A DNA stretch of 56,047 bases from Clostridia bacterium (GCA_029061465.1 JAIDRY010000176.1:1-56047), one strand, 5' to 3'; numbered from the stretch's first letter, positions 13,356 to 53,635 are shown. The notes: generated by a model not told the origin, from the letters alone. A program made the numbers and translations.

Positions 13356-13385
13356 AGTAAATCTCCTTATTAAAATATTGTGTAT

Positions 13386-37094: not shown

Positions 37095-37123
37095 TTGACA
37101 TTAATATTATATTTTGATAGAAT
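37095..37123 (+). promoter_or_regulatory. sigma-70/SigA-type promoter of operon A
   Basis: TTGACA (37095..37100), a 17-nt spacer, then TAGAAT (37118..37123). It lies ~40 nt upstream of the ATG at 37162. Confidence 0.6.
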
Positions 37124-37161: not shown

Positions 37162-37689
37162 ATGACAACAAAATTATTTGAACGATTGGTTACAAAATTC
37201 TCTATCAAAGTAACGGATTTAATTAAATATCTAGAGATATCTAAGGCGACAATTTATAATTACCGTAACTTGGATAGATTTGCGGATATTCCCAAGGACA
37301 AGCAGTTAAAGATACTGTATCTTTTCGGTAAAGAAACAGAAGAGGAGCTTGAGCTCGTTTTAGATGAGTCTGATGCTGAGATACTAAATAAATATTTAAA
37401 TCGTATTTCGAGCATATTGACTGACAGTATCAATGGTAAAAAGGAAGAGATAGCATCGCTTGAAGAACTGACAATACAGAATGAAAGATTATTGAAAGAA
37501 AATGCTTCCCTGCAAAGGCAGTTAGTTGCTTTGCAAAAATTTTCCGGTATGGACGAATTTGCACGGGCAATTTTATTTGATAAAGTTTCGGAAATCGTTG
37601 TTGGTGCAAGTGCTGCCGAGATGAAAGAATTTATTGATTACATTGATATTTTTTCTAAATACCGCAAGTACACCGAAAGCAAAAATTAA
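37162..37689 (+). CDS. HTH DNA-binding protein with coiled-coil C-terminal half (first gene of operon A)
   Basis: 175 aa. N-terminal HTH (VTDLIKYLEISKATIYNYRN) followed by a heptad-like region (LEELTIQNERLLKENASLQRQLVALQ). Its stop lies 13 nt before the helicase start. Confidence 0.6.
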   Translation: MTTKLFERLVTKFSIKVTDLIKYLEISKATIYNYRNLDRFADIPKDKQLKILYLFGKETEEELELVLDESDAEILNKYLNRISSILTDSINGKKEEIASLEELTIQNERLLKENASLQRQLVALQKFSGMDEFARAILFDKVSEIVVGASAAEMKEFIDYIDIFSKYRKYTESKN

Positions 37690-37702: not shown

Positions 37703-40700
37703 ATGGCATATCTTTATTTGAATTTTGTTGATAATTTGGAATCGGGAAGTCGTAATCCAAACGATTTATATAACACGTCGCTCAATGAACAATATGAAGC
37801 GCTTAAACGCAAAATTGGCGGAACTTATTCGGGGACATTGCAAGAGTTTATTGCGCATTATTGTCCTATAACTGAAAACGAGTATTATCTATCTTTACCG
37901 AGCTTTGACAGAGGAATACGCACCGTTGTAAATAAAAACGGCAAAGAAAACAAGTACATAAACAATATTATTATCCGCCCGATGAAGAAGAAATACGCAC
38001 ACAACGTGCTACCGGAGAATTACGAATTAATTCTGATTGGTGACGTTATGTTTGGAAGCGTTATTTCGGTTTTGATAAAGGGGATTGATATAATTGACAG
38101 CTCCATCGAAAAATTCGGTGAAATGAGAATCATTTGCACTGCCGCGTGTGCATTTTCGAAAACGATGCTTCGTATGGGGGCAACCGTTCCCGATTATGGC
38201 ACAACGGAATTGCATAATTCAGTGCTGACTAATGACTTTGTTGACGAGCTATGCAATGAATTGTATCCGGTTCCAAATCCGAAAGAAGCCCTGAAAACAT
38301 TTGATGAGTGGCAAAGATACATAGATTTCAGGAAGTATTATTTAAATAAACAATCGGAAAGATGTGAAGCTATTTCTGCTGTGGAAGTTTGCGATTCATA
38401 TATGATATCGCGTGAAGCGTATAGGCGTAATGAGGAAGACTACAAGTCGCTTTTGCTTGATGGTATTCCACAATTTGCAAAGGGTGAGCAGGTAATTCTA
38501 TCAAAAGAAGTTCAGGGTGCAGAGAGCTTCCCTTTGATACGCATAGATATAGATAAAAACCGCAAAGAAGTTTTAAGAGTAACCACGGGGAAGAACGGCA
38601 AAGGTAAACCTAAATTCGAAGCTGATTTAAATAGATATACGCGTGATGCAATGGGATTATCAGCTACCGAGCCGAGATACGTTAACGGCGATTTGCCTAA
38701 GGGATTTCGTTTTTATCAATACGTTTTAGGGGAAAGATATTTATTCACGTCTATTGATATTGAACCTGACTGTGAAGCAATTGATAAAAAATTTGAAAAG
38801 AATTGTAAAACGGCGGAAAAGTCAATCGATGAAAAATACGCTTCTATAATAGCGGTTGAATTAAACCGTTTTATGAACGCGCAAACTCCTGCGGTTACGG
38901 CACGGTATACCAAGCAATTTGACGAATACGTAAGCTCATTAAATAATGCGCTTGAAAACGAAGTTCGTGCAAACAGTGACAAAGAGGTGCAAAAAGAGTT
39001 TGAGCGAGCCGAAAAAGAACTGACTGCGCCGATTAAAAACGTGTTCGAAAGGGAACGCAAAGAATTTGAACGCAAGCTTTCCAAGTTAAACAAGGGTAAA
39101 GACGATAAGGATATTGCGCATATCCAAATCGAAATTTCATTATTGGAAGATAAGTACGAAAAGGATTGTGCGAATGCGACGCGTAAACTGAATATCCGTG
39201 ACTTCTATTTAAAGAGAAACGCGAAATTAATTGACAATAAGCGCAAAAGTACCGATATTGCCCTTCAGGTAGAATTGAAAAGAATAAAACAGGAAAAAGA
39301 AGAGCAATTAAAAGCGCAGTACCGTGAATCAATTCGTGCGGAGAAAGAAACAAGCAAAAAAGAATTGAAGCAAAAGTGTGAGGAGGAAAAGGCATATAAA
39401 ATCGATGACGAAACTATTCGTCGTTATTGCATCTATTTCCGCCCCGACGATACAAATAAAACGCTGAAAAATCTTGAAAAGGAAATCGAGGGATTAGGAG
39501 CCCGCTATCTGACTTATGATAACCGGGCAGAAAAGGCAAAGATAGAACGTCAGGAAAAAGCACTTGCTTCTTTTATGGGCGGTTACGTAAAGAATCCATA
39601 TTTGGCTGCATACTTATTTGCGCCGCAGTCGCTCGGTCAAACACCGAGAGCAGTTGGTCAAGAAATAGATTGGTGTTGTGGTTTAAACGACAGACAACAA
39701 GCAGCTGTAACTAAGGCGCTTGCAAGTGAAAGCTTATTCTTGTTGCAGGGACCTCCGGGAACGGGTAAAACACAAGTAATTGCAGAAATTACCGCACAGC
39801 TTTGTCGCAGAGGGAAGAAGGTTTTAATTTCATCTGAAACGCATAAAGCTATCGATAACGTGTTTGAACGCCTTCCTAAAATTCCGGAAATAAGGCCACT
39901 TAGACTCATTCCGTCGCAAAACGGTAAGGAAACCAATTACAGTCCGGAGAAATTGGTTGATAACTTCTATTTGAATATATCCCGTAACCTTGAAAAGCAG
40001 GTTGACAGGTATGAACACTTTGAGGAAACGAAAGAGTCTTTCAATGAAACAATGAACAAGCTTCGTTTGGGTTACGAAAGAGTTCTAAGGTTAAAAAGAC
40101 AAATCGGGCAAGTGGAGCGTGAACGTAAAGACATTTCCGACAATATAAGCAAATTGAATGAAATAATTGACCGTTTGCGCGGAGAACTGTCCGTAGTGCT
40201 TACAGAAGTAGAACGTTACAAAAGAACGGTAAAATATATTGAAGCATATAGATTTAGTGCCGAAGATGTCAAAGAACAATATATTGAAGCGTTTGTAAGG
40301 AATATAGAAGTTTTACTCTCTAAGTATGATTGTTTTAAAGAATTATCCAAAGAAAAAGCGGGTGAGCTTGTAAAATTAGATTTAACGATGGTAAAGGCTG
40401 AGCTTGAAAAACTTTTGTCGGAAGATGTGCTTGTAAAGCTAAAAAATCGTCAGAAGGAATTAAGAGATATTCTTTCAGAGCTGCGCGACCCTGAAACCGA
40501 CGAAGCTCCTCAGGAAGGCGACGCGCATTTTGCAGAGTATAAAAAATATCAAAGTGAATTAAGATCTGTTGTTAATGATATTAAAAGGGCACAGGAAGAA
40601 AGCGAGTTCGATACGTCGGAAAGTGTTATATTTGCGATTTTGCCGCATATTACTAACGATAAATTGAAAAGGCTGTTAGAAGAGCTTACTGCGTTCAAGA

Positions 40701-42289
40701 TAGAAGCGCAACGCACCGTAATCGAATTCAAAGACAAAATTGAGACGGATATAAAATCCGTTCTTAAAAAGCAAGACGGACTCGAAAGCGATATAAGCGA
40801 GAAGCAGCTTGCTATAAGCGGTGAAAAGAGAAAGTATGAAGAGCTTGGCGAAAATCAAACCCTTGCCGAGTATAATGAGCTTAATTCCGTATTAAAGCAG
40901 AGCGTGTCGCGGTTTATACGTGATTTTAATATCGTGCGCGAATATAATCCCGACGATATGGAAGAGGCGTTCTCAATTATTGCCGAGGAGTGGAAAGCAA
41001 TTGAGAAAGATTATCAATCCACACTGACGGAGAATAAAACCAAAATACCGATGTATCGGGGTATTTGTAAGTATCTTGCACAACCGGACATTTTAGAGGA
41101 GGACAGACAGGCGTATACCCGTGCGCTTTTCGATAATGTCAACGTATTCGGTATAACCTGCACGAGCCGAGATAAATTTACGGATGCCCAGAATGAAGAA
41201 CTTCGCCGCTATGGTATCAAGGACGTAAATATACGAACACAAGGAATTGATGTTGTTATTATAGACGAGGTTTCCAAGTCTGCTTTCCTTGATTTGCTTA
41301 TACCTATTTTGTATGGAAAAACCGTTATACTTGTGGGTGACCACAGGCAGCTTCCGCCGATGTACGATTTGCGCCATATGAGAGCGGACGACTTCGAGGG
41401 GCTGGATGAGAGCATTATCACGAAAGAAATAAACGATAAGTACACGGCTTTATATGAGGAATGTTTCTTCAAAACGTTGTATGAAAAAGTTTCCGATGAT
41501 TTCAGAGTAATGCTCAATAAACAGTATCGTTGCCATAGTCATATTATGGAGGTATTCAATCATTTCTATGGCGGCAGTCAAAAGGGATTGACGGTAGGAA
41601 CAAAGCAGCAGGACAACGAAAAACAGCATAATCTAACGGTTCGTTTTGGCGGAAATACCGTTATAGACCCGCAGCATCATATTTATTTTGTTGATTGTGA
41701 AGAGCGTGAATCGAGTGCTTACGAAGGAAGTACGTCTAAAGTTAACGAGCAGGAAGCGCAGGTCGCAATAGAGTTGTTACGTCAGCTCGATAACGCAAGC
41801 GGAGAGCTCGTTAAATCAGGTAAATTCAAAGTCAATAAAGAAAGACGAATAGATGAGCGTCCGAGCGTTGGCGTTATTTGTACTTACGGTGATCAGGCGG
41901 GACTTATCAAGAAAAAGCGTAAAAACAAACAATTCAATAATTTCTCTGGTAAACAGGACGAAAAACTGATAATAAGTACCGTGGATGATTTTCAAGGTGA
42001 TGAGCGTGATATAATAATCCTTTCTATGGTAAGAAATCCTGCGGGAAAGAATTTCGATTTGGAGTTTCTTAAAAAATTCGAACGTATCAACGTGGCGTTG
42101 TCTCGTGCCAGAAAATTGTTGATAGTGGTTGGTGCGCGTAAATTCTTGTCCGATAACGGTATTATCGATTTGCCCGATTTGGAAGGCAAAGGTAAAGGAC
42201 AGCAGAATTTCCACGTGTACAGGAAAATTATTGACACAATCGATTTCAAAGGAAGAATTATTCCTGCACGTGATATCATAGGAGAATGA
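37703..42289 (+). CDS. large SF1 helicase, Upf1/DNA2-like (AAA_11/AAA_12 type), with ~680-aa N-terminal extension and ~500-aa coiled-coil insertion
   Basis: Walker A LLQGPPGTGKTQ (GPPGTGKT = 39749..39772, K689). Walker B VVIIDEVSK (DE = 41264..41269, D1188). Motif III LVGDHRQLPPM, motif IV-like QYRCHSHI, motif V STVDDFQGDERDIIILS, motif VI RINVALSRARKLLIVVG. Confidence 0.85.
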   Translation: MAYLYLNFVDNLESGSRNPNDLYNTSLNEQYEALKRKIGGTYSGTLQEFIAHYCPITENEYYLSLPSFDRGIRTVVNKNGKENKYINNIIIRPMKKKYAHNVLPENYELILIGDVMFGSVISVLIKGIDIIDSSIEKFGEMRIICTAACAFSKTMLRMGATVPDYGTTELHNSVLTNDFVDELCNELYPVPNPKEALKTFDEWQRYIDFRKYYLNKQSERCEAISAVEVCDSYMISREAYRRNEEDYKSLLLDGIPQFAKGEQVILSKEVQGAESFPLIRIDIDKNRKEVLRVTTGKNGKGKPKFEADLNRYTRDAMGLSATEPRYVNGDLPKGFRFYQYVLGERYLFTSIDIEPDCEAIDKKFEKNCKTAEKSIDEKYASIIAVELNRFMNAQTPAVTARYTKQFDEYVSSLNNALENEVRANSDKEVQKEFERAEKELTAPIKNVFERERKEFERKLSKLNKGKDDKDIAHIQIEISLLEDKYEKDCANATRKLNIRDFYLKRNAKLIDNKRKSTDIALQVELKRIKQEKEEQLKAQYRESIRAEKETSKKELKQKCEEEKAYKIDDETIRRYCIYFRPDDTNKTLKNLEKEIEGLGARYLTYDNRAEKAKIERQEKALASFMGGYVKNPYLAAYLFAPQSLGQTPRAVGQEIDWCCGLNDRQQAAVTKALASESLFLLQGPPGTGKTQVIAEITAQLCRRGKKVLISSETHKAIDNVFERLPKIPEIRPLRLIPSQNGKETNYSPEKLVDNFYLNISRNLEKQVDRYEHFEETKESFNETMNKLRLGYERVLRLKRQIGQVERERKDISDNISKLNEIIDRLRGELSVVLTEVERYKRTVKYIEAYRFSAEDVKEQYIEAFVRNIEVLLSKYDCFKELSKEKAGELVKLDLTMVKAELEKLLSEDVLVKLKNRQKELRDILSELRDPETDEAPQEGDAHFAEYKKYQSELRSVVNDIKRAQEESEFDTSESVIFAILPHITNDKLKRLLEELTAFKIEAQRTVIEFKDKIETDIKSVLKKQDGLESDISEKQLAISGEKRKYEELGENQTLAEYNELNSVLKQSVSRFIRDFNIVREYNPDDMEEAFSIIAEEWKAIEKDYQSTLTENKTKIPMYRGICKYLAQPDILEEDRQAYTRALFDNVNVFGITCTSRDKFTDAQNEELRRYGIKDVNIRTQGIDVVIIDEVSKSAFLDLLIPILYGKTVILVGDHRQLPPMYDLRHMRADDFEGLDESIITKEINDKYTALYEECFFKTLYEKVSDDFRVMLNKQYRCHSHIMEVFNHFYGGSQKGLTVGTKQQDNEKQHNLTVRFGGNTVIDPQHHIYFVDCEERESSAYEGSTSKVNEQEAQVAIELLRQLDNASGELVKSGKFKVNKERRIDERPSVGVICTYGDQAGLIKKKRKNKQFNNFSGKQDEKLIISTVDDFQGDERDIIILSMVRNPAGKNFDLEFLKKFERINVALSRARKLLIVVGARKFLSDNGIIDLPDLEGKGKGQQNFHVYRKIIDTIDFKGRIIPARDIIGE

Positions 42290-42290: not shown

Positions 42291-44498
42291 ATGGAAGAGA
42301 AAATAATAAAACAGATAAAAACTCAATGCCCTTTTCCGCTGTTGATTTATAAGACGCGTATTAAGTATAACGAAGTGCGTAAAGCTTCGGGCATAGCATA
42401 TATTCTATTAGAGCTTATCACCAAGCAACGTTCGGATATGCGTTTTCGTGAAGCATTGTTAAAATTCGGAATACCGGCAGAACTTCACAGTTTGTTTGGA
42501 AGTGAACTTGCTGGCTTAGTCAATAATGAAATAGTTCAGGCAAACTATCCTGCATCGCACTTTGCAAATCCTAAATATTTCGGTGAAATCCAAGTCAACG
42601 ACGTTACTCTTACTGTTAAGGGACAAAAACTGTTCCGCGAGGGCGCAATTCCTACGGGACAGGAGAAGGAAAGGCCAAAGGATATTTATTTCAGTCCCGT
42701 AACGCGTAAATTCGAAGTGCAGTATAATATGCCGTATTCGCCGATTTCCGGTAGTTTTTTGGGCGAGGAGTTTTTGGACAAAGTAGATATTGATATCAGC
42801 GGTTTAGAAGATTATATTAATGCGAATCCCACGAAATTAGGATTGAAAGCCGAAGAGCGTATGATATCTTTTGCAACGGACGAACCGCAAAAAATGAATG
42901 TCCGAAAAGAAGATAACATCACTTTAAATATCTACCCGTCGTTTATAGAGTTTATGTTTGCTGATTCGGCAGAAAGGGCATTCTTTGATAAATATTACTC
43001 TTCTTCGATAATGACGAATGGTATGACCATGAAAGATAAGTTTAAATTCCCTAAGTTAAATGGGAATTTGCTGTCTGTTAATATAACGGATATACGCAAT
43101 CTTACTGCGCTTTATTTACCTAACGAGCTAACCAAACAGGCAGGGCGGCAATGTGTAATATTCTTGCATAGAGGTAATGCGGGTTTAGAACGTGACGATG
43201 TGATTTGCGCGGACAAGCGGTTTGCTTGTGAATTACTTGATAAAATAGACAAAAATGCGCAATTCGCGTTGTTGGACAAGTCAGGGTGCAAAATTTTTTG
43301 TGCGGTAAATGTAGTTATGCCGTGCAAGAATTTCGGAGATGTGCTTACTCTACCACTTTTGACAGAAAGCAATGCGTCCCTCGAAACGTTCCGTGGAATA
43401 GTTGACTGTCTCTATAATGAATACGCAGAAAAACCGTTCGACGACGATGTCGGCAAGGTTGTGTCGTACGCAGTTGAGAGCTTGGGTAATACTGAATACT
43501 TCGGTAAAATAATCAAGAAGAAATTGCAATCGGTAGTCAGGGTGGATGAACGGATAGAAATATTATTAAAGCTGAATTCGGCTTTCAAAAAATATCCATC
43601 GTGGAAAAATGACTTTACGGAAGCGGCTATCGGGCTTTATAACGAAAGCGTGAGCGAAGTTAAAATTGAAAATATCATTTATAAAAATACTGTTTTGACT
43701 CCGCTGAAAGGTGCCCTGCAAATTTCCAATTCGGAATACGTTCGCAAGTTTTCTGAAAACATTTGTAAAACCGAATCCAAAGAAATTGTTTACGAAGCAC
43801 TTGATTCTGCGGGCTTTACCGATATGGAAACACTGTCGGTTGCAAACGTAATAGAAACGTTTATGTCAAACGTTTTAGCAAGAGAAGTAATTGCTTCCGA
43901 AACCGTGCTTGCTTCCAAATATAAGACGGTACATACAAATCTTTGGAAGTTGTGTGATATGCTTGGTATTGAAAACAGCGCGGAATATACCTTGCGCGAA
44001 GATTACAATACAGATGACTTCTTTAATGCCTACGCCACGCTACAAAACGTAATAAAAGCAGTAGAGAAATATAGACCTTTTGCGCCCAAAGAATATGAAT
44101 TATTGGGGCGATATCTTGAGATATTCGAGCCGATTCACGAGCTTTTGTCTATCGAATGTACCGCTTCGGCAAATCCCGAAAAGATTACAAAAAAATATAT
44201 TGACGATTATATCACAAGAGGAAAGTATAAGGACGCAATTTGCGATTTGCTTGTAAAGCTGCAATATGATTTAAGAAAACTTTTGCAGGCAGACAGAGAA
44301 ACGCAAGCCAACGAACTTATTGATATGGCGCTTAACGAAAAGCTTATTTCTAAACCGCAAGTTGATGTGTTACATAAACTGCGTATGTGCAGAAACGGTT
44401 TTCAACATCCCGAGCGAAAACAAATTCCGTTCGATAAACCCACAATAGAAAATTGGCGAGATATCGTATTTATGTTAGGAGGGAAAAATGAGTCATAG
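42291..44498 (+). CDS. 735-aa uncharacterised protein with C-terminal RNxxxH (HEPN-like) motif
   Basis: The start lies 1 nt after the helicase stop, with an AGGAG SD. No known N-terminal domain recognised. The C-terminal helical region ends in LHKLRMCRNGFQHPE, where R701-N-G-F-Q-H706 is encoded at 44391..44408. Confidence 0.6.
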   Translation: MEEKIIKQIKTQCPFPLLIYKTRIKYNEVRKASGIAYILLELITKQRSDMRFREALLKFGIPAELHSLFGSELAGLVNNEIVQANYPASHFANPKYFGEIQVNDVTLTVKGQKLFREGAIPTGQEKERPKDIYFSPVTRKFEVQYNMPYSPISGSFLGEEFLDKVDIDISGLEDYINANPTKLGLKAEERMISFATDEPQKMNVRKEDNITLNIYPSFIEFMFADSAERAFFDKYYSSSIMTNGMTMKDKFKFPKLNGNLLSVNITDIRNLTALYLPNELTKQAGRQCVIFLHRGNAGLERDDVICADKRFACELLDKIDKNAQFALLDKSGCKIFCAVNVVMPCKNFGDVLTLPLLTESNASLETFRGIVDCLYNEYAEKPFDDDVGKVVSYAVESLGNTEYFGKIIKKKLQSVVRVDERIEILLKLNSAFKKYPSWKNDFTEAAIGLYNESVSEVKIENIIYKNTVLTPLKGALQISNSEYVRKFSENICKTESKEIVYEALDSAGFTDMETLSVANVIETFMSNVLAREVIASETVLASKYKTVHTNLWKLCDMLGIENSAEYTLREDYNTDDFFNAYATLQNVIKAVEKYRPFAPKEYELLGRYLEIFEPIHELLSIECTASANPEKITKKYIDDYITRGKYKDAICDLLVKLQYDLRKLLQADRETQANELIDMALNEKLISKPQVDVLHKLRMCRNGFQHPERKQIPFDKPTIENWRDIVFMLGGKNES

Positions 44499-45600
44499 TG
44501 TTGAAATAGATTATCAAGGGCTTGCAATTCAATGCAATAGTGTTTGTGAAGTTGCGGAAAAACGATTGCAAGAGTTGGACGAAATGATTGCAAAAGCAGA
44601 GAGCGCTTCAAGCCGTTTATTAAACGACCAATCTGCACAATTTGTCAAAATGATTTATGAAGAAAGAAAACGACTGGAAAAACAAATCAAAGCCGTTCGA
44701 CAAAGTGCTGAGGGAAAAGCTAAGCGCGGAGTTGTGCGTGTTGATAATGAAAGTGCAGAATATAGACATTCGAACGACAATATTCTGGCTGCGGGGAATT
44801 TGCAACACACCATTGACGAGCTTGCTTCTAAACGATTGATTGAATTTCAAAGTCTTTTGCAAACCCTTTTAGGTGAAAGTATACAAGAACACCAGCGTAA
44901 ACTGCGTGAACAAACTAACGGTGCAATAACGGTTGATTCTCACACTCAATCACACTTGGACAAGATTGAAGACGAGGTTCTTCGCCAGTTTACTTATCTT
45001 GCATATTTGAATGACAATACACTTTCGGGCGATGAATTGTTGCAAGCGGGACAAGTGCTTATGATGCAGAGAGTAAATCAAACTTATGAAGAGCGTTATG
45101 AACAAGAACGTGCAAAAATCCGTGCCGAACTTGAAGCTTCGCGTGTTGCCCCCGAAACGGTGGATAAAGTGCTGAATAAAACACAAGGCACGGCACAAGA
45201 AAAACTTACGTCAATTCGCCAAAATGCTACTGCCGAAATTGTCGGTGAAAAGGTGCGTCAGAAGTCGCTTAAAATTATAATGGACGCTATCAAACAACGT
45301 GGATTTGTTGTTGACAAGAAGAACGTTAAAATTAAACGAGATACAAATGAAGTTGTTTTGGTTGCATTAAAGGCAAGCGGAGAAAAAGCGGAGTTTCGAA
45401 TATTCCTCGATGGTAAATTCATTTACGATTTCCATGGTTATGAGGGACAGGCTTGTCAAAAGGATATAGAACCGTTTATGCACGATTTGGAAGAAGTATA
45501 CGGCATAAAAGTAACCAAACAAACAGAAATCTGGAGCAATCCTGATAAAATTTCTACTATGAAGTATCAGGCAATAAACACCAATAAGAATAAAAGATAA
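44488..45600 (+). CDS. 370-aa coiled-coil protein with small C-terminal alpha/beta module
   Basis: Its ATG overlaps the upstream stop by 11 nt, with a GGAGGG SD. Long heptad-rich, Gln/Glu/Lys-rich helices span aa ~20-260. The C-terminal ~100 aa read IMDAIKQRGFVV...EFRIFLDGKFIYDFHGYEGQACQKDIEPFMHDLEEVYGIKV. Confidence 0.55.
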   Translation: MSHSVEIDYQGLAIQCNSVCEVAEKRLQELDEMIAKAESASSRLLNDQSAQFVKMIYEERKRLEKQIKAVRQSAEGKAKRGVVRVDNESAEYRHSNDNILAAGNLQHTIDELASKRLIEFQSLLQTLLGESIQEHQRKLREQTNGAITVDSHTQSHLDKIEDEVLRQFTYLAYLNDNTLSGDELLQAGQVLMMQRVNQTYEERYEQERAKIRAELEASRVAPETVDKVLNKTQGTAQEKLTSIRQNATAEIVGEKVRQKSLKIIMDAIKQRGFVVDKKNVKIKRDTNEVVLVALKASGEKAEFRIFLDGKFIYDFHGYEGQACQKDIEPFMHDLEEVYGIKVTKQTEIWSNPDKISTMKYQAINTNKNKR

Positions 45601-45611: not shown

Positions 45612-47444
45612 ATGGCACTTACTACAACCTTTAACAGATTAAGACGTGAAATTGGTATTAAAAGATGTGTAATCGTTGAGGGAAACGTCGGCGACGTTTA
45701 TTTAAATGAGAAGAAACAAATAGTTGACTTGAAGCAGTATCTTATGGATATGCTTAAAGCTATTGACTACGATGATGTGCTTTATTGGGATAGAATTGAC
45801 GGTGTGGACGGAGACATATCTCGCCTTTCGGTTATCGATGAAGTGGAAGTAGAGGGTGAAGCTTATGTCTTTTATGATGAAGACGATAAGTCAGAAAAAG
45901 AACAAAAGACAGGCAGCGGACTTTTCAAAGAGCCCGCCGAGATATTTAATATCATTTTTAAAAATTTGAAAAAGCCCAACCGCAAAACCGCATTTGTTTT
46001 GAACTGGGCAGATTATTTGTTTACGACGGGTGGGCAACTGCCGCCCGACGAGCGTGAACTTATTACGCTTCTTGGGAAAGCAATCAAGGATAAAAAAGTT
46101 GACTATCTTTCTGCTGAAGTGAATGAAAGTACAATCGTACTCATTACGAGCAAGCTTGCTATGTTCCCGATATCGTTCTATCAGGGCAATCCCGAAGTGT
46201 CTTGTCTCACGCTTTCAAAGCCCGACAGAGAAGAACGCGAAAAAATGATGGATAAAGTGGAAAGCGGATTTGAGGTTAAGTTAAAACCCGGCGAAACACT
46301 TATGACTTGCGAAAAGAAGAATGAGTATATCGATATGCTTGATGATTTTACAAACCGTGAAATTATTCAGCTTGCGAGACTTTCACGCAAAGAGGGTAAA
46401 ATGCCATTTGAACAGTTATATCTGTTGTTCAAGTACGGTGAAAAGGATAACCCTTGGGAAAAACTTGACTATAAGGCTGTAAAAGATATTAAGAAAATTC
46501 TTGCCGAGCGGGTAGTCGGACAGGAAGAAGCCATCGAAAAAATTGAGAAAGTCGTTGTGAAGGCGTATATGGGGCTTACCGGAATCCATAAATCTTCCAG
46601 TCGTTCCGCGCCCAAAGGTGTGTTGTTCTTCGTCGGTCCTACCGGTGTTGGTAAAACCGAACTTTCAAAAGCTCTTGCAAAATTTCTGTTCGGTGACGAG
46701 CAGGCTTGTATTCGCTTTGATATGTCAGAGTATGCGCAGGAAAACAGTGACCAAAAGCTTATCGGTGCGCCTCCCGGATACGTGGGATATGAAGAGGGCG
46801 GTCAGCTTACAAATGCAGTAAAAGAAAAGCCGTTCAGTATTATTCTGTTCGACGAGATAGAAAAAGCAGCAAAGCCTAATCCCCGTATTTTGGATATTTT
46901 CTTGCAAATTCTTGAAGACGGACGTCTTACCGACAGTAAGGGTGAAACGGTTTATTTCAGTGAAAGCGTTATTATCTTTACGTCAAACCTCGGCGCTTCG
47001 GAAGTGGCTTCGGGCGGTTCCAACGAACAGGTTGCCAAGGAGTTTATTGATATTGTCAAAAACTATTTCGACAATGAAATCAAGCGCCCCGAAATTTTGG
47101 GACGTATCGGTTACAGCAATATAGTTCCGTTCAATTTCATCAAAGACAGGGATTTTACCGTTAAAATAGCAAAATCAAAACTTCGTCCTGTTCAGAAAGC
47201 GATTCTCGAAAAATATAGGATAGACCTAATTTTTGAAGATGAACTGAAATTTATTGACTATATTTTGGGCGGTGCGGATAGCAGTAAGGGTGGTCGTGAT
47301 ATTCTTAATGCAATCAATGATAAGCTTTTGGACGAGCTTGCAATGTTTATGTTCGAAAACAAGCAGGATTTATCGTCGTTCAAGGGCGCAAAAATCGTAG
47401 TCAGCGTATCGAAAGATAAACTGCATTTTGAATTTGATGATTAA
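45612..47444 (+). CDS. AAA+ ATPase with Clp/Hsp100 D2-type module and degenerate N-terminal AAA-like domain
   Basis: The C-terminal half is colinear with ClpB/ClpA D2: VVGQEEAIEKI, Walker A GPTGVGKT (46635..46658, K348), IRFDMSEY, GAPPGYVGYEEGGQLT, Walker B ILFDEIEKA (D414/E415), ILEDGRLTD, sensor-1 IIFTSNLG. The N-terminal ~290 aa lack Walker motifs. Confidence 0.85.
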   Translation: MALTTTFNRLRREIGIKRCVIVEGNVGDVYLNEKKQIVDLKQYLMDMLKAIDYDDVLYWDRIDGVDGDISRLSVIDEVEVEGEAYVFYDEDDKSEKEQKTGSGLFKEPAEIFNIIFKNLKKPNRKTAFVLNWADYLFTTGGQLPPDERELITLLGKAIKDKKVDYLSAEVNESTIVLITSKLAMFPISFYQGNPEVSCLTLSKPDREEREKMMDKVESGFEVKLKPGETLMTCEKKNEYIDMLDDFTNREIIQLARLSRKEGKMPFEQLYLLFKYGEKDNPWEKLDYKAVKDIKKILAERVVGQEEAIEKIEKVVVKAYMGLTGIHKSSSRSAPKGVLFFVGPTGVGKTELSKALAKFLFGDEQACIRFDMSEYAQENSDQKLIGAPPGYVGYEEGGQLTNAVKEKPFSIILFDEIEKAAKPNPRILDIFLQILEDGRLTDSKGETVYFSESVIIFTSNLGASEVASGGSNEQVAKEFIDIVKNYFDNEIKRPEILGRIGYSNIVPFNFIKDRDFTVKIAKSKLRPVQKAILEKYRIDLIFEDELKFIDYILGGADSSKGGRDILNAINDKLLDELAMFMFENKQDLSSFKGAKIVVSVSKDKLHFEFDD

Positions 47445-47982
47445 GTTTAACATTGCAAGTATCAATCAATGTACCGAAGTAGAAGGACCGTATAAAAGAC
47501 TATGCATTTGGTTTCAAGGTTGCAATATTCACTGCAAAGGATGTTGTAATCCTGATTACCAGCCGCTCGTGCCGAAGAATATACTTTCGCTTGACAAATT
47601 AATTTTGATTATAGCTGAAGCAAAAGAAAAATTCGGAATAGAGGGAGTAACCTATTCGGGTGGAGAGCCCACTTTGCAACAAAGTTTGTCTCAGCTTACC
47701 GAAGAGATACATAAGCTTGGGTTAGGCGTTATATCGTTTACAGGTAGAAACTACGAGGAAGTAAAAGAAGTTTTGTGCGGTTGTGATGCAGTATTGGACG
47801 GAGCTTTCATCAAGGAATTGCCCGAAACAAAGCGCCGTATACTCGGTTCTTCAAATCAGCGCATATTATGTTTAACTGATAGATATAAAGATTGTATTGA
47901 TAGGTGGTTTACAAGTATCGGATTAAAGACAGAAGAAATTAATGTCGGCAATAGTATAGTAGTGAACGGTGATAAGTTTTGA
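47437..47982 (+). CDS. NrdG/PflA-type radical-SAM activase-like protein (4Fe-4S single-cluster family)
   Basis: EGPYKRLCIWFQGCNIHCKGCCNP, with CxxxCxxC encoded at 47521..47544. SAM-binding-like GVTYSGGEP. C-terminal NrdG-like LDGAFIKE...ILGSSNQRIL. The ATG at 47437 overlaps the upstream stop (ATGATTAA). The ORF track uses an upstream TTG at 47428. Confidence 0.8.
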   Translation: MIKFNIASINQCTEVEGPYKRLCIWFQGCNIHCKGCCNPDYQPLVPKNILSLDKLILIIAEAKEKFGIEGVTYSGGEPTLQQSLSQLTEEIHKLGLGVISFTGRNYEEVKEVLCGCDAVLDGAFIKELPETKRRILGSSNQRILCLTDRYKDCIDRWFTSIGLKTEEINVGNSIVVNGDKF

Positions 47983-48011
47983 CATTAAAAAGGATAATAT
48001 TCTAAATATTA

Positions 48012-48055
48012 GGTGCAGATAACTGTTATAAGCGGTTGTCTGTACCTTTAATTTT
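48012..48055 (+). terminator. intrinsic terminator closing operon A
   Basis: 12-bp stem: GGTGCAGATAAC (48012..48023) pairs with GTTGTCTGTACC (48035..48046), including two G-U pairs. TTTAATTTT follows. Confidence 0.75.
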
Positions 48056-48255: not shown

Positions 48256-48471
48256 ATGAAATCAACTTCATTTTTCGAAACAAAATTAAAACATATCAGA
48301 ACAGCAAAAGGCTATTCTCAAAAGCAACTTGCTGAACTATCAGGTGTGAGCCTACGCTCCATACAAATGTATGAGCAGCGACGAAAAGATATAAACAAAG
48401 CTCAGTCTGATTCGCTGTACCACTTGGCGAAAGTTCTCTGTTGCACAATGGAAGACTTACTGGAAGAATAG
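48256..48471 (+). CDS. small XRE-family HTH protein, controller (C) protein-like
   Basis: 71 aa with HTH YSQKQLAELSGVSLRSIQMYEQRRKDINKAQ. It is the first gene of an RM-like operon and appears leaderless. Confidence 0.7.
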   Translation: MKSTSFFETKLKHIRTAKGYSQKQLAELSGVSLRSIQMYEQRRKDINKAQSDSLYHLAKVLCCTMEDLLEE

Positions 48472-48536
48472 AGTTGTCGAAAAATGTCACAAATAAAGCA
48501 AAATTAATGTCTAATATCTAAAGTGGGGGAAATCAA

Positions 48537-49196
48537 ATGAAATGTCTTTATGAGTTAAATGTTGAGCAGCTTTATAAACTAGTTGAAGAAGATTTGAGCC
48601 TTGATGGCTGGATTATCTGGAACGAGACCCTTGCGAAGCGAACGGAGTCCGCGCGAGAGCTTAAGCGGTTTGATATTATAAAAGATAAAGCAATCGAACA
48701 AGGTTTTATTAATATTGATAATGAAATTGTTACATGGTTTGATACTTTAACTATGTTATACCGTTCGCTCAAAAATATCAGTGATTTAGAATTAAAAGAC
48801 AATTTAAAAATATTCCAAGAATTCCGTATGCCGTATTCTCGAAGAAGAGCAGATTATGTGCTTGTATATGATAACAAAATTTTAATTTTAGAGTTTAGTT
48901 TTGATAAACTTGGATATGCGCAGAAATATGAAGACAAATTACAGCAGGCAAGTAGTTACAAAGAAATACTAGGAGTATTTTTACCAAAAGAAATAGATAT
49001 AGGCACATATACATTTTTGATTGATCCAGACGAAGATAAAGACGGCAGATTTATTTACGATCCAGAAACCAAACGTCGAGTAAATGATGATAAAGTAGAA
49101 GAACTGGCAACAGTGATAGTAAAATTTTTCAAAAAGAATTTAAAGTCGGCATATAACGCATTAAAGCATTTAGATTATGGCGATGGGAATGGGTAA
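48537..49196 (+). CDS. hypothetical protein with PD-(D/E)xK-like core pattern
   Basis: 219 aa. FQEFRMPYSRRRADYVLVYDNKILILEFSFDK fits the E...D...(E-x-K) layout of restriction-endonuclease-fold domains. The final triad reads E-F-S, with a K four residues later. Confidence 0.4.
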   Translation: MKCLYELNVEQLYKLVEEDLSLDGWIIWNETLAKRTESARELKRFDIIKDKAIEQGFINIDNEIVTWFDTLTMLYRSLKNISDLELKDNLKIFQEFRMPYSRRRADYVLVYDNKILILEFSFDKLGYAQKYEDKLQQASSYKEILGVFLPKEIDIGTYTFLIDPDEDKDGRFIYDPETKRRVNDDKVEELATVIVKFFKKNLKSAYNALKHLDYGDGNG

Positions 49197-49242
49197 GCCT
49201 ATTCAATGGTGAAATTTTAAAGAAAATTTATAAGGAATTCAA

Positions 49243-52200
49243 ATGCTAAAAATAGGATTATACGAACAAGTCATAAATAAGCTATTGGATAAAGAGCTGT
49301 CCGAAAATGAAGATAAGCTCAGTCAGACTGCGCATATCGATGAAGGCGAAGCATCTAAAATTCTTTCACAATATATAGCTGAAATTATAGAAAAGGGGCT
49401 TGATTATGTCCACGATAAAGGCGGAAATGTTCAAGACCAAATTCAACTTATAAATCGAATTGTCTCAACAATTATTTCGGAAACAAAAGAGGCGGACTTT
49501 AATGAGCTATCAGTTGCAGAGCGTGCTGAACAACTTTTAGCACTCTTGAATAAAAGGGATACTATCTTAGCAATTAATGAAAAGGCGGAAATAGTTCGTC
49601 CCGAAACATCAATTGCTCAGAGTTCGCTTTTTACTGGAGCAATTAATGAACCTCAGATGTTCAACGAATTGAATAAGGAAATTGTTTCAAGCGATAGAAT
49701 TGATATGCTGGTTTCCTTTATAAAGTGGAGCGGATTGAGGCTCATTATCGACGAGTTGAAAAAATTTACTCAACGCGGTGGAGAACTTCGTATAATAACA
49801 ACTTCGTATATGGGTGCTACCGACATAAAGGCAGTAGAAGAGCTTAGTAAGCTTCCCAATACAAAAATTAAAGTCAGCTACGATACAAAGCGTACACGTC
49901 TTCACGCAAAAACTTATGTATTTTATCGTGATACAGGTTTTACGACCGCATATGTAGGTTCTTCCAACCTTTCAAATGCAGCAATATCGTGTGGCCTGGA
50001 ATGGAATGTTAAGGTAACAAGAAAGGACTTGCCAGAAACTATAGCAAAAATTAAGGCAACATTTGAGAGCTATTGGAATTCAAACGAGTTTGAATTTTTC
50101 TCGGAAGGGCAGAGGGATCGTCTTGTACATGCGTTAAAAGCTGAAAAGTTTTCGGATAGTAATAGTGAGAAATTATATACATTTGACATATCGCCATATT
50201 CATACCAGCAAGAAATATTGGACAAGTTGGAAGCGGAACGAACAATTCATGGGCGCCATCGCAATTTAATTGTTGCGGCGACGGGGACAGGTAAAACAGT
50301 TATTTCAGCATTTGATTATAAAAGGTTTAAGAATCAAAATTCTAATAATGCTTGCAAATTATTGTTTGTTGCACATAGAGAAGAAATCTTGAATCAGAGT
50401 ATAGAAACATTTCGTGGGATTTTGAAGGATGCGAACTTTGGTGATCTATTTGTAGGCAATTATAAACCTGAATCCATTGATAATCTGTTTATATCAATCC
50501 AGACATTTAATTCGCAAGATTTTACTTCTAAGACTAGCCCAGACTTTTATGATTATATAATTGTCGATGAATTTCATCATGCGGCGGCTCCCACATACCA
50601 AAAGTTACTTACATATTATAAGCCTAAAATACTGCTAGGTTTAACCGCCACGCCTGAACGTATGGATGGCAAAAACATATTGGAGTATTTTGGTAATAGT
50701 ATTGCGGCAGAAATCAGGCTTCCTGAAGCTATTGATAGGAAATTGCTTTGTCCTTTCCAATATTTCGGTGTAACAGATATTGTTGGCCTCGATGATATAA
50801 AGTGGAGTAGAGGCGGCTACGATAAGGATGAGCTATCCAATATTTATACGATAAACGAAGAAACCGCAGTGCGTCGTGCCGACTACATAATTGCATCAAT
50901 TTTGAAATATGTGACTGATATAGATGAAGTTAAAGGACTTGGATTTTGTGTATCAATTGAACACGCGAAGTTCATGTCAAATTATTTTAATAACCACGGT
51001 ATCCCTTCAATGTATCTTGTTGGCAGCTCGTCAGATGATGAAAGAAAGAGCGTAAAGAAGAAGCTGGTAAACGGAGAAATTAGATTTATCTTTGTTGTTG
51101 ATATTTATAATGAGGGTGTAGATATCCCTGAGGTTAATACTGTCTTATTCCTTCGGCCCACTGAGTCGTTGACAATATTTTTGCAACAGCTCGGACGCGG
51201 CTTACGTCTTTCAGAAGGGAAAGAATGTTTGACGGTACTTGATTTTATTGGACAAGCAAATAAGAGATATAATTTTGAAGATAAGTTTGCGGCTCTTTTA
51301 TCAAATACTACCCGCAGTATTCAACGCGAAATAAAAGACGGCTTTGTATCTGTTCCTAAGGGATGTTATATCCAACTTGAAAAGAAAGCGCAGAAATACA
51401 TTTTAGAAAATATTCGCGCGTCGTTAAATTCGAAGAGTGGTCTATTGGCAAAAGTTAAAACATTTGAAACCGAAAGCGGGTTAAAGCTTTCGTTAATAAA
51501 TTATATCCATTATTATCACATCGATGTAAGGACGATCTATAATAAAAAATTAACATTTTATTCAATGTGTGAGCAGGAAGGGTTATGGCAATCAACTGAC
51601 CATATTTTTGATGATCCATTTAGAATTTTATTTCACTTTTGTTGTGTTGACTCAATTAAATGGATTAATTTTGTTTTATCTGAATTGCGAAATGGAGAAT
51701 TCAATAAATTGAATTCTTATAACGAAGAACAACAATTAATGGTTAAAATGTTATACTCCTCAATCTGGGATAAGACTCCTAAAACAGAAGGATTTATTGA
51801 TGAAATAGAAGCGTTAAACTTTTTGTTTAAAGATAAATACTTTATTGAAGAACTTATAGAATTGCTTTGCTTATGTAAGAAAGATGTAAATATTGTTGGG
51901 CGAGATCCTGAATTGGATTATATTTGTCCATTAGAAGTGTACTGTACTTATACTCGCGATCAAGTGCTGGCTGCGTTAGGATTCAACGAGGATTATACTG
52001 TTTCGGAAGGTGTCAAGTATTTTAAGGATAAAAATACAGATGTACTGTTTACAACACTTAATAAAACAGATAAGTTTTATTCTCCGACTACAGCATATAA
52101 TGATTATTCGATTAATGAAGAACTGTTTCACTGGCAAAGTCAAAGTACAACATCAGACACTTCATTAACCGGGTTAAGATATATAAATCAAGATAATAAC

Positions 52201-52389
52201 AGTAACAACATATTACTTTTTGTGCGTGAACAAAAGTCAGATAAATTTGGGCCACAGCCTTTTATTTTCCTTGGTAAAGTACATTATGTTCAGCATGAGG
52301 GAAGTAGACCTATGAACATAGTTTGGCAATTGGATAATAATATACCAGCTAAATTTTTATCAAAAACAAATAAATTAATTTTGGGATAA
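49243..52389 (+). CDS. SauUSI-like enzyme: PLD (HKD) nuclease + SF2 helicase + C-terminal DUF3427
   Basis: HKD motif RLHAKTYVFYRDTGFTTAYVGSSNLS (H221, 49903..49977). Walker A AATGTGKT (50275..50298). DEFHH box (50566..50580). Motif VI QQLGRGLRL. The C-terminal ~250 aa follow the DUF3427 pattern (FHWQSQSTTS..., ILLFVRE, PFIFLGKVHYVQHEGSRPMNIVWQLDN). Confidence 0.85.
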   Translation: MLKIGLYEQVINKLLDKELSENEDKLSQTAHIDEGEASKILSQYIAEIIEKGLDYVHDKGGNVQDQIQLINRIVSTIISETKEADFNELSVAERAEQLLALLNKRDTILAINEKAEIVRPETSIAQSSLFTGAINEPQMFNELNKEIVSSDRIDMLVSFIKWSGLRLIIDELKKFTQRGGELRIITTSYMGATDIKAVEELSKLPNTKIKVSYDTKRTRLHAKTYVFYRDTGFTTAYVGSSNLSNAAISCGLEWNVKVTRKDLPETIAKIKATFESYWNSNEFEFFSEGQRDRLVHALKAEKFSDSNSEKLYTFDISPYSYQQEILDKLEAERTIHGRHRNLIVAATGTGKTVISAFDYKRFKNQNSNNACKLLFVAHREEILNQSIETFRGILKDANFGDLFVGNYKPESIDNLFISIQTFNSQDFTSKTSPDFYDYIIVDEFHHAAAPTYQKLLTYYKPKILLGLTATPERMDGKNILEYFGNSIAAEIRLPEAIDRKLLCPFQYFGVTDIVGLDDIKWSRGGYDKDELSNIYTINEETAVRRADYIIASILKYVTDIDEVKGLGFCVSIEHAKFMSNYFNNHGIPSMYLVGSSSDDERKSVKKKLVNGEIRFIFVVDIYNEGVDIPEVNTVLFLRPTESLTIFLQQLGRGLRLSEGKECLTVLDFIGQANKRYNFEDKFAALLSNTTRSIQREIKDGFVSVPKGCYIQLEKKAQKYILENIRASLNSKSGLLAKVKTFETESGLKLSLINYIHYYHIDVRTIYNKKLTFYSMCEQEGLWQSTDHIFDDPFRILFHFCCVDSIKWINFVLSELRNGEFNKLNSYNEEQQLMVKMLYSSIWDKTPKTEGFIDEIEALNFLFKDKYFIEELIELLCLCKKDVNIVGRDPELDYICPLEVYCTYTRDQVLAALGFNEDYTVSEGVKYFKDKNTDVLFTTLNKTDKFYSPTTAYNDYSINEELFHWQSQSTTSDTSLTGLRYINQDNNSNNILLFVREQKSDKFGPQPFIFLGKVHYVQHEGSRPMNIVWQLDNNIPAKFLSKTNKLILG

Positions 52390-52393
52390 GCAT

Positions 52394-53635
52394 ATGAGAA
52401 TAGTAGACTTGTTTTCGGGGGCCGGTGGGTTAACATTCGGGTTTTATTATAAATTAGACAACGGTAGATTTGTTAAAAAGGATAATGCAATAATATTTGC
52501 TAATGAATTTAACAAAAATGCTGCAGCTGCTTATAAAAAAAATTATACTAATGTAAATATGATTGTTGGCGATATCCGTGAAGTTCTCACTGACGAATTA
52601 ATTAGAGAAAAGATAGGGAATGAGGAAGTTGACTTAATTATTGGTGGACCACCTTGTCAATCGTTTAGTACGGTTGGTAAAAGAATATATGATGAAAAGG
52701 CTAAGCTTTTTTGGGAGTATTTGCGACTTATTAGAGTAGTAAGACCGAAGATGTTTTTATTCGAAAATGTAAAAGGTTTATTATCTATGAAAGAGGTATT
52801 CTATAAAAAAGATGAGAATGGAGAAATTTTAAAAGAAAAGAAGCAAATTGGGCATGAAGGTGGAAAACAAAGGACAATAGAAGTTCCAATTGTTGACCAT
52901 TATGGCAAAAAAATTATAGATATCATTAAAAAAGAATTTGGGGATGTAGATAAAGATCTTGGATATGATATTGAATCACAAGTGGTAGATGCGGTGAATT
53001 TCGGTGTGCCTCAAAATAGACAGCGTGTGGTTATTTTAGGAGTACGTAAAGATTTGGGGGTTAAAATTCCAAAATTTGAAAGTGGTAACAAAACTGAATT
53101 GACAATTAGAGATGCGATTTCTGATTTGCCAGTTGTTAACGAAGGCGAAGAAATAAAGTGCTATGATTGTAAACCTCAAAATGTTTATCAAAGATTAATG
53201 CGAGGGGATAATAAAGTATTGCGAGATCACAGCTGTGGAACTTATGGGGATAAAATTCGAACTGTTATACAACATGTAAAACAAGGGCAAGGTCGAAACG
53301 ATTTTAATGCTTTAGTTGATGCAGGGAAAATAGATAAAAAGTATTATTTAACTTCTGGCTATAAAAATACTTATGGTAGGCTTGAAGAAAATAAACCGTC
53401 TACTACTATAACGAATAATTTATCTACGCCTTCAGGATTAAGATGTATTCATTATTCACAAGATAGGGCGCTGACATCGCGTGAAGGTGCTAGAATACAA
53501 TCATTCCCAGATTGGTTTTATTTTGAAGGAAAAAGCAGGGCAGAAATAAATACACAAATCGGTAATGCCGTGCCACCATTAATGGCAATGGCGATAGCAA
53601 GAATAATTGAAAAAGTTTTAGGGGGAGGTAATTAA
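52394..53635 (+). CDS. dcm: DNA (cytosine-5)-methyltransferase
   Basis: Motif I DLFSGAGGLTFGF. Motif IV GGPPCQSFS (catalytic Cys codon 52655..52657). Motif VI ENVKGL. Motif VIII QNRQRV. Motif X GNAVPPLMA. Its start lies 4 nt after the upstream stop. Confidence 0.93.
   Translation: MRIVDLFSGAGGLTFGFYYKLDNGRFVKKDNAIIFANEFNKNAAAAYKKNYTNVNMIVGDIREVLTDELIREKIGNEEVDLIIGGPPCQSFSTVGKRIYDEKAKLFWEYLRLIRVVRPKMFLFENVKGLLSMKEVFYKKDENGEILKEKKQIGHEGGKQRTIEVPIVDHYGKKIIDIIKKEFGDVDKDLGYDIESQVVDAVNFGVPQNRQRVVILGVRKDLGVKIPKFESGNKTELTIRDAISDLPVVNEGEEIKCYDCKPQNVYQRLMRGDNKVLRDHSCGTYGDKIRTVIQHVKQGQGRNDFNALVDAGKIDKKYYLTSGYKNTYGRLEENKPSTTITNNLSTPSGLRCIHYSQDRALTSREGARIQSFPDWFYFEGKSRAEINTQIGNAVPPLMAMAIARIIEKVLGGGN

Follow-up and report, generated by a model that had tools for sequence, protein, structure and literature searches.

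To our knowledge, every characterised member of the NrdG/PflA class of radical-S-adenosylmethionine (radical-SAM) enzymes arms a glycyl-radical enzyme (GRE) in anaerobic metabolism. The subject of this work is the gene for a small protein of this type in a stretch of 56,047 nucleotides from a Clostridia bacterium (GCA_029061465.1, JAIDRY010000176.1:1-56047), the whole of which is referred to as the window. The gene closes an operon in which it follows genes for a large helicase (gene 1), a predicted RNase effector (gene 2), a coiled-coil protein (gene 3) and a Clp-like AAA+ ATPase (gene 4), and these five genes are referred to as the cassette. The radical-SAM protein resembles NrdG and PflA in its minimal Fer4_12 core, in the spacing between loop A and the CxxxCxxC motif, in its GGEP motif and in its DGxF...GSxNQ block, but differs from them in having no GRE partner, in profile scores that stay below the family cut-offs, in a C-terminal tail of 30-60 additional residues, in its operon with an AAA+ ATPase, and in its occurrence in aerobes and on plasmids. 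The enzyme is a variation on an established class, and the candidate defence system to which it belongs appears to be undescribed. The interpretation that we tentatively prefer is that an enzyme of the NrdG/PflA class has become a core subunit of a defence-type mobile operon, a candidate system against phages or plasmids, where it would act on protein together with an unfoldase.

Several described immune systems share individual elements with the cassette. As in Mokosh, a large SF1 helicase of Upf1-like type accompanies an effector of nuclease type, and the setting is that of defence islands, but the effector of the cassette is of the HEPN/PIN type where MkoB of Mokosh is a PLD protein, none of the operon proteins has a PLD domain, and the coiled-coil/YxGxxC protein, Clp-like AAA+ ATPase and radical-SAM protein are without a Mokosh counterpart. 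The ClpB-NBD2-like module of gene 4 also occurs in DolB of Dodola and in PDC-M37B of PADLOC (E-values of 8.6e-20 and 3.4e-33, respectively, for gene 4); these are, however, partial profile matches restricted to the ATPase core, and the cassette has no DolA-like partner. We know of no radical-SAM protein in Dodola or PDC-M37B systems. Radical-SAM enzymes are essential immune-operon components in pVip, Ophion (OpnA) and HXS (HxsB/C), but pVip and OpnA are viperin-like and HxsB/C are of the peptide-maturase type; none of them belongs to the NrdG/PflA class, none is coupled to an unfoldase, and their partners differ. Ophion and pVip act via nucleotides (bioRxiv 10.1101/2025.09.30.679545). The radical-SAM enzymes of HXS mature a protein effector in antiphage defence (PMC13128918), and a protein-directed radical-SAM enzyme in defence therefore has a precedent. 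A radical-SAM effector of the vWA-MoxR-FtsH ternary conflict systems has likewise been proposed to modify a nearby-encoded peptide (Kaur, Burroughs, Iyer, Aravind 2020, PMC7159879); these systems combine radical-SAM proteins and AAA+ ATPases as the cassette does, but their vWA and MoxR components were not seen in it.

Placement of the radical-SAM protein and search for a glycyl-radical enzyme

The radical-SAM gene and the elements recognised in its product are as follows.

47437..47982 (+): radical-SAM gene, the finding reported here; intact open reading frame (ORF) for a 181-residue NrdG/PflA-like radical-SAM protein
47482..47499 (+): loop-A counterpart, E16-G-P-Y-K-R21, from the alignment with E. 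coli NrdG, PflA and phage NrdGs
47521..47544 (+): [4Fe-4S]/SAM cluster motif C29-x3-C33-x2-C36, within FQGCNIHCKGCCNP
47875..47979 (+): C-terminal tail, residues 147-181, ...TDRYKDCIDRWF...EINVG..VVNGDKF, from the alignment

A first-pass annotation of the window had given the protein 182 residues, a length to be corrected to 181 codons plus a stop. The motifs it had read, namely FQGCNIHCKGCCNP with C29, C33 and C36, GVTYSGGEP (residues 70-78) and LDGAFIKE...GSSNQRIL, are all where it had placed them, and so is the overlap that it had noticed between the start codon and the end of the Clp-like gene, with ATG at 47437 and TAA at 47442-47444 giving 8 shared nucleotides in ...GATGATTAA. The match of the protein to radical-SAM families is far beyond chance. 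Pfam Fer4_12 (PF13353) was matched with an E-value of 3.1e-22 and 79.8 bits against a gathering cut-off of 22, residues 15-143 corresponding to profile positions 1-136 of 137, and Radical_SAM (PF04055) with 5.1e-11 and 43.5 bits against a cut-off of 29.5. Among NCBIfam models the top match was NrdG (TIGR02491), which is covered end to end (residues 5-144 versus profile positions 1-151 of 154) at 77.4 bits, short of the equivalog cut-off of 126.1; the relatives found in a second type of operon, described below, reach 117-118 bits and likewise remain under this value. The cut-offs of PflA (TIGR02493; 63.3 versus 231.75 bits) and PFLE_PFLC (TIGR02494; 31.2 versus 174.35 bits) were not reached either. 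Longer GRE activases also have a ferredoxin-like insert, and none is present in the 181 residues of this protein. The QueE profile scores 26.6 bits against a cut-off of 260.1 and matches only the generic cluster region, and the QueE-specific insertions were not found in an alignment with E. coli QueE. Viperin (NF038283) scores 20.8 versus 180 bits, and the PADLOC pVip model 25 bits over residues 27-99 only. A sequence search of the PDB returned only PflA (E-value of 1e-5). The profile searches that had been proposed as a way of placing the protein in a subfamily therefore settle its type, Fer4_12 and NrdG/PflA, but put it within none of the NCBIfam equivalog families, all of which score below their cut-offs.

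The protein and its relatives were aligned with E. coli NrdG, four phage NrdGs, E. coli PflA and E. coli QueE as references. Across the group, the cluster motif is kept, as are GGEP and a DGxF...GSxNQ block of NrdG type, with C29, C33, C36 and G75-G76-E77 invariant. Loop A, for which a role in the GRE activases was reportedly described by Vey and colleagues in 2008, reads (D/N)GPGxR in those activases, EGPGxR in most of the relatives and EGPYKR in the subclade of the window, and its residues E16, G17, P18, K20 and R21 are invariant. Its distance from the cluster motif is that of PflA and NrdG, unlike that of QueE. In PflA, loop A closes over the substrate peptide (PMC10267522). The radical-SAM proteins associated with AAA+ ATPases have in common a conserved C-terminal tail of 30-60 residues that is missing from the NrdG references, in which R149, Y150, W157, F158, E167, N177 and G178 are invariant. 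From these features we infer that the window protein is a functional radical-SAM enzyme of the NrdG/PflA class. A neighbour-joining tree sets the AAA+-associated proteins apart from the five bona fide NrdGs, with PflA and QueE outside, but the bootstrap support is weak (39 of 100 replicates); a robust placement inside the NrdG or QueE clades, which the first-pass annotation had named as counting against it, was not seen in this tree.

The same annotation had taken the gene for an activase without a GRE partner, and the searches bear this out. Queries comprising E. coli NrdD, E. coli PflB and two phage NrdDs detected no GRE by tblastn (E-value of at most 1e-3) in the 56-kb window or in 91 related loci (L001-L091), so that no canonical NrdD or other GRE was found near the operon that might co-vary with it elsewhere. 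Identical queries do find NrdD beside distant radical-SAM relatives in four viral loci (L109, L110, L114 and L115), and annotated NrdGs fetched as controls adjoin NrdD; since the controls detect NrdD, the lack of a GRE in the window and the related loci is meaningful. None of the six operon proteins contains an R[VILT]xG[YFW] motif, in agreement with the earlier reading by eye that the operon partners have no RVxGY-type motif, and the sole RVCGF in a six-frame scan of the window (35261, + strand) lies in a frame with no listed plus-strand ORF of at least 100 residues. The AlphaFold2 model of gene 2 had no significant PDB match in Foldseek, PFL and NrdD included, and hence no detectable GRE barrel. 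Sub-cut-off scores, loci devoid of a GRE and the separate grouping in the tree together argue that the protein is not a housekeeping NrdG.

Conservation of the cassette and of the AAA+ partnership

Homologues of the radical-SAM protein form 566 clusters at 90% identity (E-value of at most 0.001), the best 120 of the 566 being 65-95% identical to it. A scan of GTDB species genomes yielded 564 stretches with a relative, and 80 of these 564 loci were examined. The five genes occur in the same order (helicase, gene 2, gene 3, Clp-like ATPase, radical-SAM protein), separated by short gaps or overlapping, in 34 loci with complete ORFs, and many truncated copies were found besides; the cassette spans about 10.8 kb. 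Its flanks differ between loci and include SIR2-HerA, HipAB, Fic, ArdA, ABC transporters, transposases and plasmid replication genes. Hosts are found in Clostridia, Mollicutes, Bacteroidota and Proteobacteria, and include Anaeroplasmataceae, Helicobacteraceae, Cytophagales, Alistipes, Rhodobacterales, Burkholderiales, Halopseudomonas, Planctomycetota and Synergistales. Under generic annotation only, the cassette is also carried by plasmids of Leisingera, Moellerella, Acinetobacter (pNDM1_010055), Polaromonas CJ2 and Photobacterium, and it is complete on six IMG/VR contigs classed as viral (L103-L108), where it belongs either to prophages or to islands mistaken for viruses. The cassette is a mobile module of defence islands and plasmids. 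Full-text literature searches found no description of it. The aerobes with the cassette on a plasmid or chromosome are Acinetobacter, Polaromonas, Leisingera, Sulfitobacter, Halopseudomonas and Lautropia. The suggestion in the first-pass annotation that the enzyme would make the system oxygen-sensitive, in keeping with an anaerobic host, is not supported by this distribution, to which the second type of operon adds Arthrobacter and Rhodococcus: an oxygen sensitivity that confines the system to anaerobes was rejected in view of cassettes on plasmids and chromosomes of aerobes.

Conservation within the cassette decreases from the Clp-like protein (38-92% identity across cassettes) through the gene-3 C-terminal domain, the radical-SAM protein and the helicase to gene 2. 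In the closest cassettes (L001-L015), the Clp-like protein is 85-92% identical, the helicase 56-71% and gene 2 41-68%. At 90% identity, the cluster of the Clp-like protein has 1673 members and that of the radical-SAM protein 4. One locus (L006, GCA_948972965.1, 1990-10549) holds a decaying cassette with the helicase split into 545 and 738 residues and the Clp-like protein truncated to 292, and two near-identical loci (L007, L008) hold it intact. In Acinetobacter pNDM1_010055 (L100), a second small operon lies directly 3' of the cassette (11853-13835), annotated as an AAA family ATPase of 173 residues, a radical SAM protein of 328 and a hypothetical protein of 162.

An AAA+ gene lies in the operon of the radical-SAM relative at 73 of the 80 genome loci: 44 have the Clp-like cassette, 28 an operon with a Cdc48/FtsH-like ATPase, and one a Clp-like ATPase with CorA and type III-B genes; the other 7 lie at the ends of contigs or have no clear arrangement. 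The first-pass annotation had raised a link to the neighbouring AAA+ unfoldase, and this link is not incidental. The second type of operon, hereafter the sister operon (L056-L088 and L091; e.g. L061:6959-10621), encodes a Cdc48/FtsH-like AAA+ ATPase (IetA-like in PADLOC), a DUF1257-like protein (a weak match, E-value of 0.0033) whose N-terminus is hydrophobic, a 70-residue DUF2997 protein (7.6e-16) with a G[IV]KGxxC loop, a ComEA-like HHH_3 protein and the radical-SAM protein. It was found in Gastranaerophilales, Bacillaceae, Paenibacillus and a metagenome-assembled genome of Methanobacteriaceae, and on plasmids of actinobacteria and cyanobacteria. The single type III-B locus, in Leptotrichia rugosa (L074, NZ_CP165644.1, 906-11661), runs from Cmr1, a Cas10 fragment, Cmr3, Cmr4, Cmr5 and Cmr6 to a CorA-like gene, which is followed by a Clp-like AAA+ ATPase, an NrdG-like radical-SAM protein 40% identical to that of the window, and a beta-CASP nuclease. 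The radical-SAM/AAA+ pair appears to be undescribed as an accessory of CorA and type III systems, and a link of this pair to SAM-AMP signalling is possible. From the makeup of the 80 loci, therefore, the radical-SAM protein and the AAA+ ATPase form the constant element, and the effectors vary. Two further relatives group with the enzymes of proteobacterial cassettes without being part of a cassette. One is followed by a 359-residue protein of unknown type and, 1.7 kb on, by an FtsH-type AAA+/M41 protease (L065:9953-14456), and the other by a 777-residue protein without an above-threshold Pfam match (L057:9983-12964); the two loci may represent additional architectures, or the neighbouring genes may be housekeeping ones.

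Other genes of the operon and their surroundings

Six tightly packed genes, the last of them the radical-SAM gene, lie between a promoter-like site and a strong terminator-like hairpin, and another terminator-like hairpin (36984-37008) lies ahead of the promoter-like site. The remaining features of the operon are these.

37095..37123 (+): promoter-like site TTGACA-17-TAGAAT with TG extension; a consensus match only
37162..37689 (+): candidate operon regulator, 175 residues; helix-turn-helix-like, then a heptad-like coiled-coil stretch, by eye
37703..42289 (+): gene 1, SF1 (Upf1/MkoA-like) helicase, 1528 residues, from Pfam, PADLOC and NCBIfam
42291..44498 (+): gene 2, predicted effector, 735 residues; beta-rich domain, alpha-solenoid and C-terminal HEPN-type RNase domain
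44391..44408 (+): predicted HEPN catalytic motif R701-N-G-F-Q-H706 (Rx4H), from the alignment of close homologues
44488..45600 (+): gene 3, coiled-coil protein, 370 residues; long N-terminal coiled coil and a conserved C-terminal domain of about 130 residues
45439..45465 (+): candidate radical-SAM target loop Y318-E-G320-Q-A-C323-Q-K-D326, from conservation in 176 family members
45612..47444 (+): gene 4, single-ring ClpB-NBD2-like AAA+ ATPase, 610 residues (Pfam AAA_2, 4.3e-50)
48011..48047 (+): terminator-like hairpin of 17 pairs with a T-run, 29 nucleotides past the stop of the radical-SAM gene

Gene 2 is predicted from its sequence to be an RNase effector, of the HEPN type here and exchanged for a PIN-type protein in other lineages. 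R701, N702, Q705 and H706 are invariant in the alignment of close homologues, and RNxxxH occurs in 21 of 21 Firmicutes-type orthologues, down to 22% identity. The window protein itself has no Pfam match at E<0.01; three orthologues (L017, L018 and L019) match DUF4145 with E-values of 2.8e-5, 2.3e-4 and 5e-3, and the HEPN assignment is made because of these matches and the RNxxxH motif. The AlphaFold2 model (predicted local distance difference test score, pLDDT, of 78.7; good over residues 200-731) gave only generic alpha-solenoid matches in Foldseek at E>0.03 and no significant PDB match, and a sequence search against solved structures returned no match for gene 2 or gene 3. No ligand-sensor domain (CARF, SAVED and the like) was recognisable in gene 2 by Pfam or Foldseek. 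In proteobacterial cassettes, the protein at this position ends in a PIN_4 domain and bears the RefSeq name "PIN domain-containing protein". Immune effectors typically show exchanges of this kind, with HEPN and PIN alternating at one place in the operon. DUF4145 has been placed in the HEPN superfamily by Anantharaman et al. (PMC3710099).

Gene 3 belongs to a family of 382 clusters at 50% identity, and its C-terminal domain is kept in every cassette, the proteobacterial ones included. Within this domain, Y318 (0.98), G320 (0.99), C323 (0.98) and D326 (0.99) are conserved among the 176 family members, and N351-P352-D353 is likewise near-invariant. This YxGxxC loop is the leading candidate for the target of the radical-SAM enzyme. 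A relationship of the domain to DUF2997 is a lead, not a membership: hhalign comparisons with DUF2997 and DUF1257 gave P-values of 0.005-0.03 and probabilities below 7%, the domain has no Pfam match even at an E-value of up to 5, DUF2997 (PF11211) included, and a profile search of 1.84 billion proteins returned only gene-3 orthologues among the best 150 matches. The Foldseek search with the gene-3 model had no match. In two homologues (P0184, P0186) the coiled coil is tandemly triplicated, giving 613-630 residues instead of 370, with no change in the C-terminal domain; the coiled coil thus acts like a spacer that can be lengthened.

The Clp-like ATPase of gene 4 matches the ClpB profile over residues 293-606 (2.9e-74), its N-terminal half being uncharacterised, and it contains a Walker A motif (GPTGVGKT at 342), a Walker B motif (DEIEK at 414) and a pore loop (GYVG at 389). 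It has one ring only and scores 250.9 bits against the ClpB equivalog cut-off of 1232; judged by these profiles, it is ClpB-derived but not ClpB. The helicase of gene 1 has a large uncharacterised N-terminal region and matches Pfam AAA_11 (1.2e-26, residues 661-829) and AAA_12 (2.5e-39, residues 1252-1479) with a long stretch between them, PADLOC MkoA (6.4e-93, residues 1135-1514) and the NCBIfam IGHMBP2-family helicase (7.6e-50); it is a probable nucleic-acid sensor or motor. The 175-residue protein upstream of it gave no match in a Pfam search. Homologues with 51-69% identity were found by tblastn 5' of the helicase in a subset of cassettes only (L004, L010, L012, L024, L026, L029, L103, L106 and L107).

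Upstream of the operon, GC content falls from about 0.48 to 0.32-0.40 at a tRNA-Leu(taa) gene (32485-32571). Past it lie a gene of the AAT/C45 family (32607-33641, - strand) and an ORF of 236 residues (33629-34339, - strand) in which only the N-terminal SAM-like domain of a phage integrase is present; the region looks like an island integrated at tRNA-Leu with a decayed integrase. Downstream of the cassette, positions 48256-55840 comprise a helix-turn-helix gene, an ORF of 219 residues, a PLD-ResIII helicase-DUF3427 protein, a C5 cytosine methyltransferase and a 734-residue protein with two GHKL/HATPase domains, and constitute a second defence module in the same island. The PLD protein (49243-52389) lies past the operon terminator and has its own promoter-like site; its PLD-ResIII-DUF3427 architecture resembles that of the type IV restriction enzyme SauUSI.

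Proposed mechanism and competing explanations

The preferred reading, recruitment of an NrdG/PflA-class enzyme into a defence-type operon, presumes catalytic activity, a protein substrate, a particular target loop, coupling to the unfoldase and a function in defence. The [4Fe-4S] cluster held by C29, C33 and C36 would cleave SAM reductively, and the resulting 5'-deoxyadenosyl radical would abstract hydrogen from a loop of a polypeptide that the loop-A region holds in place, in the manner of PflA and NrdG. The target loop would lie in a cassette partner, or in a polypeptide handled by the Clp-like ATPase, rather than in a GRE barrel, with the G320/C323 loop of gene 3 favoured. The radical event, be it a glycyl or thiyl radical or the chemical change resulting from it, would then serve as a switch or cofactor for the RNase effector during infection. 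A protein substrate is favoured because the peptide-binding elements of the enzyme are kept, the pore loop of the AAA+ ATPase is intact and the Gly/Cys loop of the partner domain is near-invariant. Strict aerobes among the hosts argue against a stored, oxygen-labile glycyl radical like those of metabolism, and make it more plausible that the radical event is transient or the modification irreversible. The broader generalisation that activase homologues and AAA+ rings carry out radical chemistry on YxGxxC or GxxC loops, or on a threaded polypeptide, and so create a radical cofactor or an irreversible switch by which HEPN/PIN or CorA effectors are licensed, in aerobes too and with a link to type III CRISPR systems, would amount to a hitherto unrecognised kind of immune machinery and is possible but doubtful.

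A number of observations weigh against the preferred reading. Every step of the mechanism is a prediction, and the defence activity of the cassette is suggested by genomic context only; neither PADLOC (2023) nor NCBIfam (2026) has a model for the cassette or for genes 2 and 3. Strict-aerobe hosts are difficult to square with a long-lived glycyl radical. In loop A of the window subclade the second glycine is replaced by tyrosine (EGPYKR), and the clade of AAA+-associated radical-SAM proteins is weak, being recovered in 39 of 100 replicates. The gene-3 model is helical at the N-terminus, and its C-terminal domain has a pLDDT below 50. Alignment pairs the YxGxxC loop in a consistent register with G[IV]KGxxC of the DUF2997 proteins in the sister operon, but only weakly (hhalign P=0.005-0.015), and neither a gene-3-like nor a DUF2997 partner was detectable in the Leptotrichia locus.

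The partners of the enzyme could also be read in terms of nucleic acids. An SF1 helicase, HEPN/PIN RNases, the DNA-binding HHH_3 protein of the sister operon and the beta-CASP nuclease of the Leptotrichia locus would suit an enzyme acting on a nucleotide, RNA or DNA, through a viperin-like chain terminator or radical damage to strands, in which case the helicase (or the HHH protein of the sister operon) would supply the substrate and the AAA+ ATPase would serve in assembly or regulation only. The pVip viperins are established radical-SAM antivirals, and pVip is matched weakly (25 bits); small Fer4_12 enzymes, moreover, include QueE, which has a nucleotide-like substrate and whose profile is also matched weakly. 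The viperin and QueE profiles, however, match only the generic cluster region and fall far below their cut-offs, the full-length match, loop A and the DGxF...GSxNQ block are those of the protein-directed activases, and no nucleotide kinase, phosphoribosyltransferase or similar accessory gene is present, so that a nucleotide or nucleic-acid substrate is judged unlikely. The constancy of the radical-SAM/AAA+ pair beside changing effectors (HEPN, PIN, CorA with beta-CASP) would also fit an enzyme that makes or destroys a SAM-derived small molecule controlling those effectors, with the small partner protein and the AAA+ ATPase regulating it as HORMA and TRIP13 regulate the CD-NTases of CBASS. In Leptotrichia the pair comes immediately after Cmr1, Cas10, Cmr3-6 and a CorA-like gene, and the CorA effectors of type III-B systems are said, in work of Chi and colleagues in 2023, to respond to SAM-AMP. 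This is, however, one CRISPR-linked locus among 80, no recognisable CARF/SAVED-type sensor domain was detected in gene 2, and we know of no member of the NrdG/PflA class that makes a diffusible signal; a signalling role is therefore less likely still.

Two further explanations dispense with any unusual substrate. The protein might act without radical turnover as an Fe-S/SAM sensor of redox state, oxygen, iron or the depletion of SAM by phage SAM lyases, for which its minimal size, its translational coupling to the ATPase gene and the occurrence of cassettes in aerobes, hosts in which clusters of this kind are labile, could be adduced. All catalytic signatures (CxxxCxxC, GGEP, loop-A residues, GSxNQ) are nonetheless strictly conserved among phylogenetically distant hosts, a mere sensor would not need the substrate-binding elements, and this explanation is improbable. 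An ordinary NrdG or other GRE activase, with its partner elsewhere in the genome and next to a Clp-like gene by chance, would account for NrdG being the best profile match, and no more than 56 kb of the host genome lie within the window. The order of the five genes is, however, kept across phyla, on plasmids and between unrelated flanks, and bona fide NrdGs from the same searches do adjoin NrdD. A canonical NrdG with a distant partner was rejected on this conservation of the cassette, the sub-cut-off scores, the extra C-terminal tail and the strict-aerobe hosts; it is largely refuted and is the least credible of the explanations considered.

The locus places an activase-class enzyme outside a GRE context and beside an unfoldase, in a defence-type cassette. 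If the preferred reading, a protein-directed enzyme recruited to defence, is true, protein-directed radical chemistry would be extended to immunity and to aerobic hosts. The cassette offers a testable five-gene candidate defence system with a predicted RNase effector that is common in human-gut Clostridia, and its relatives would provide a first functional context for the DUF2997 and DUF1257 proteins.

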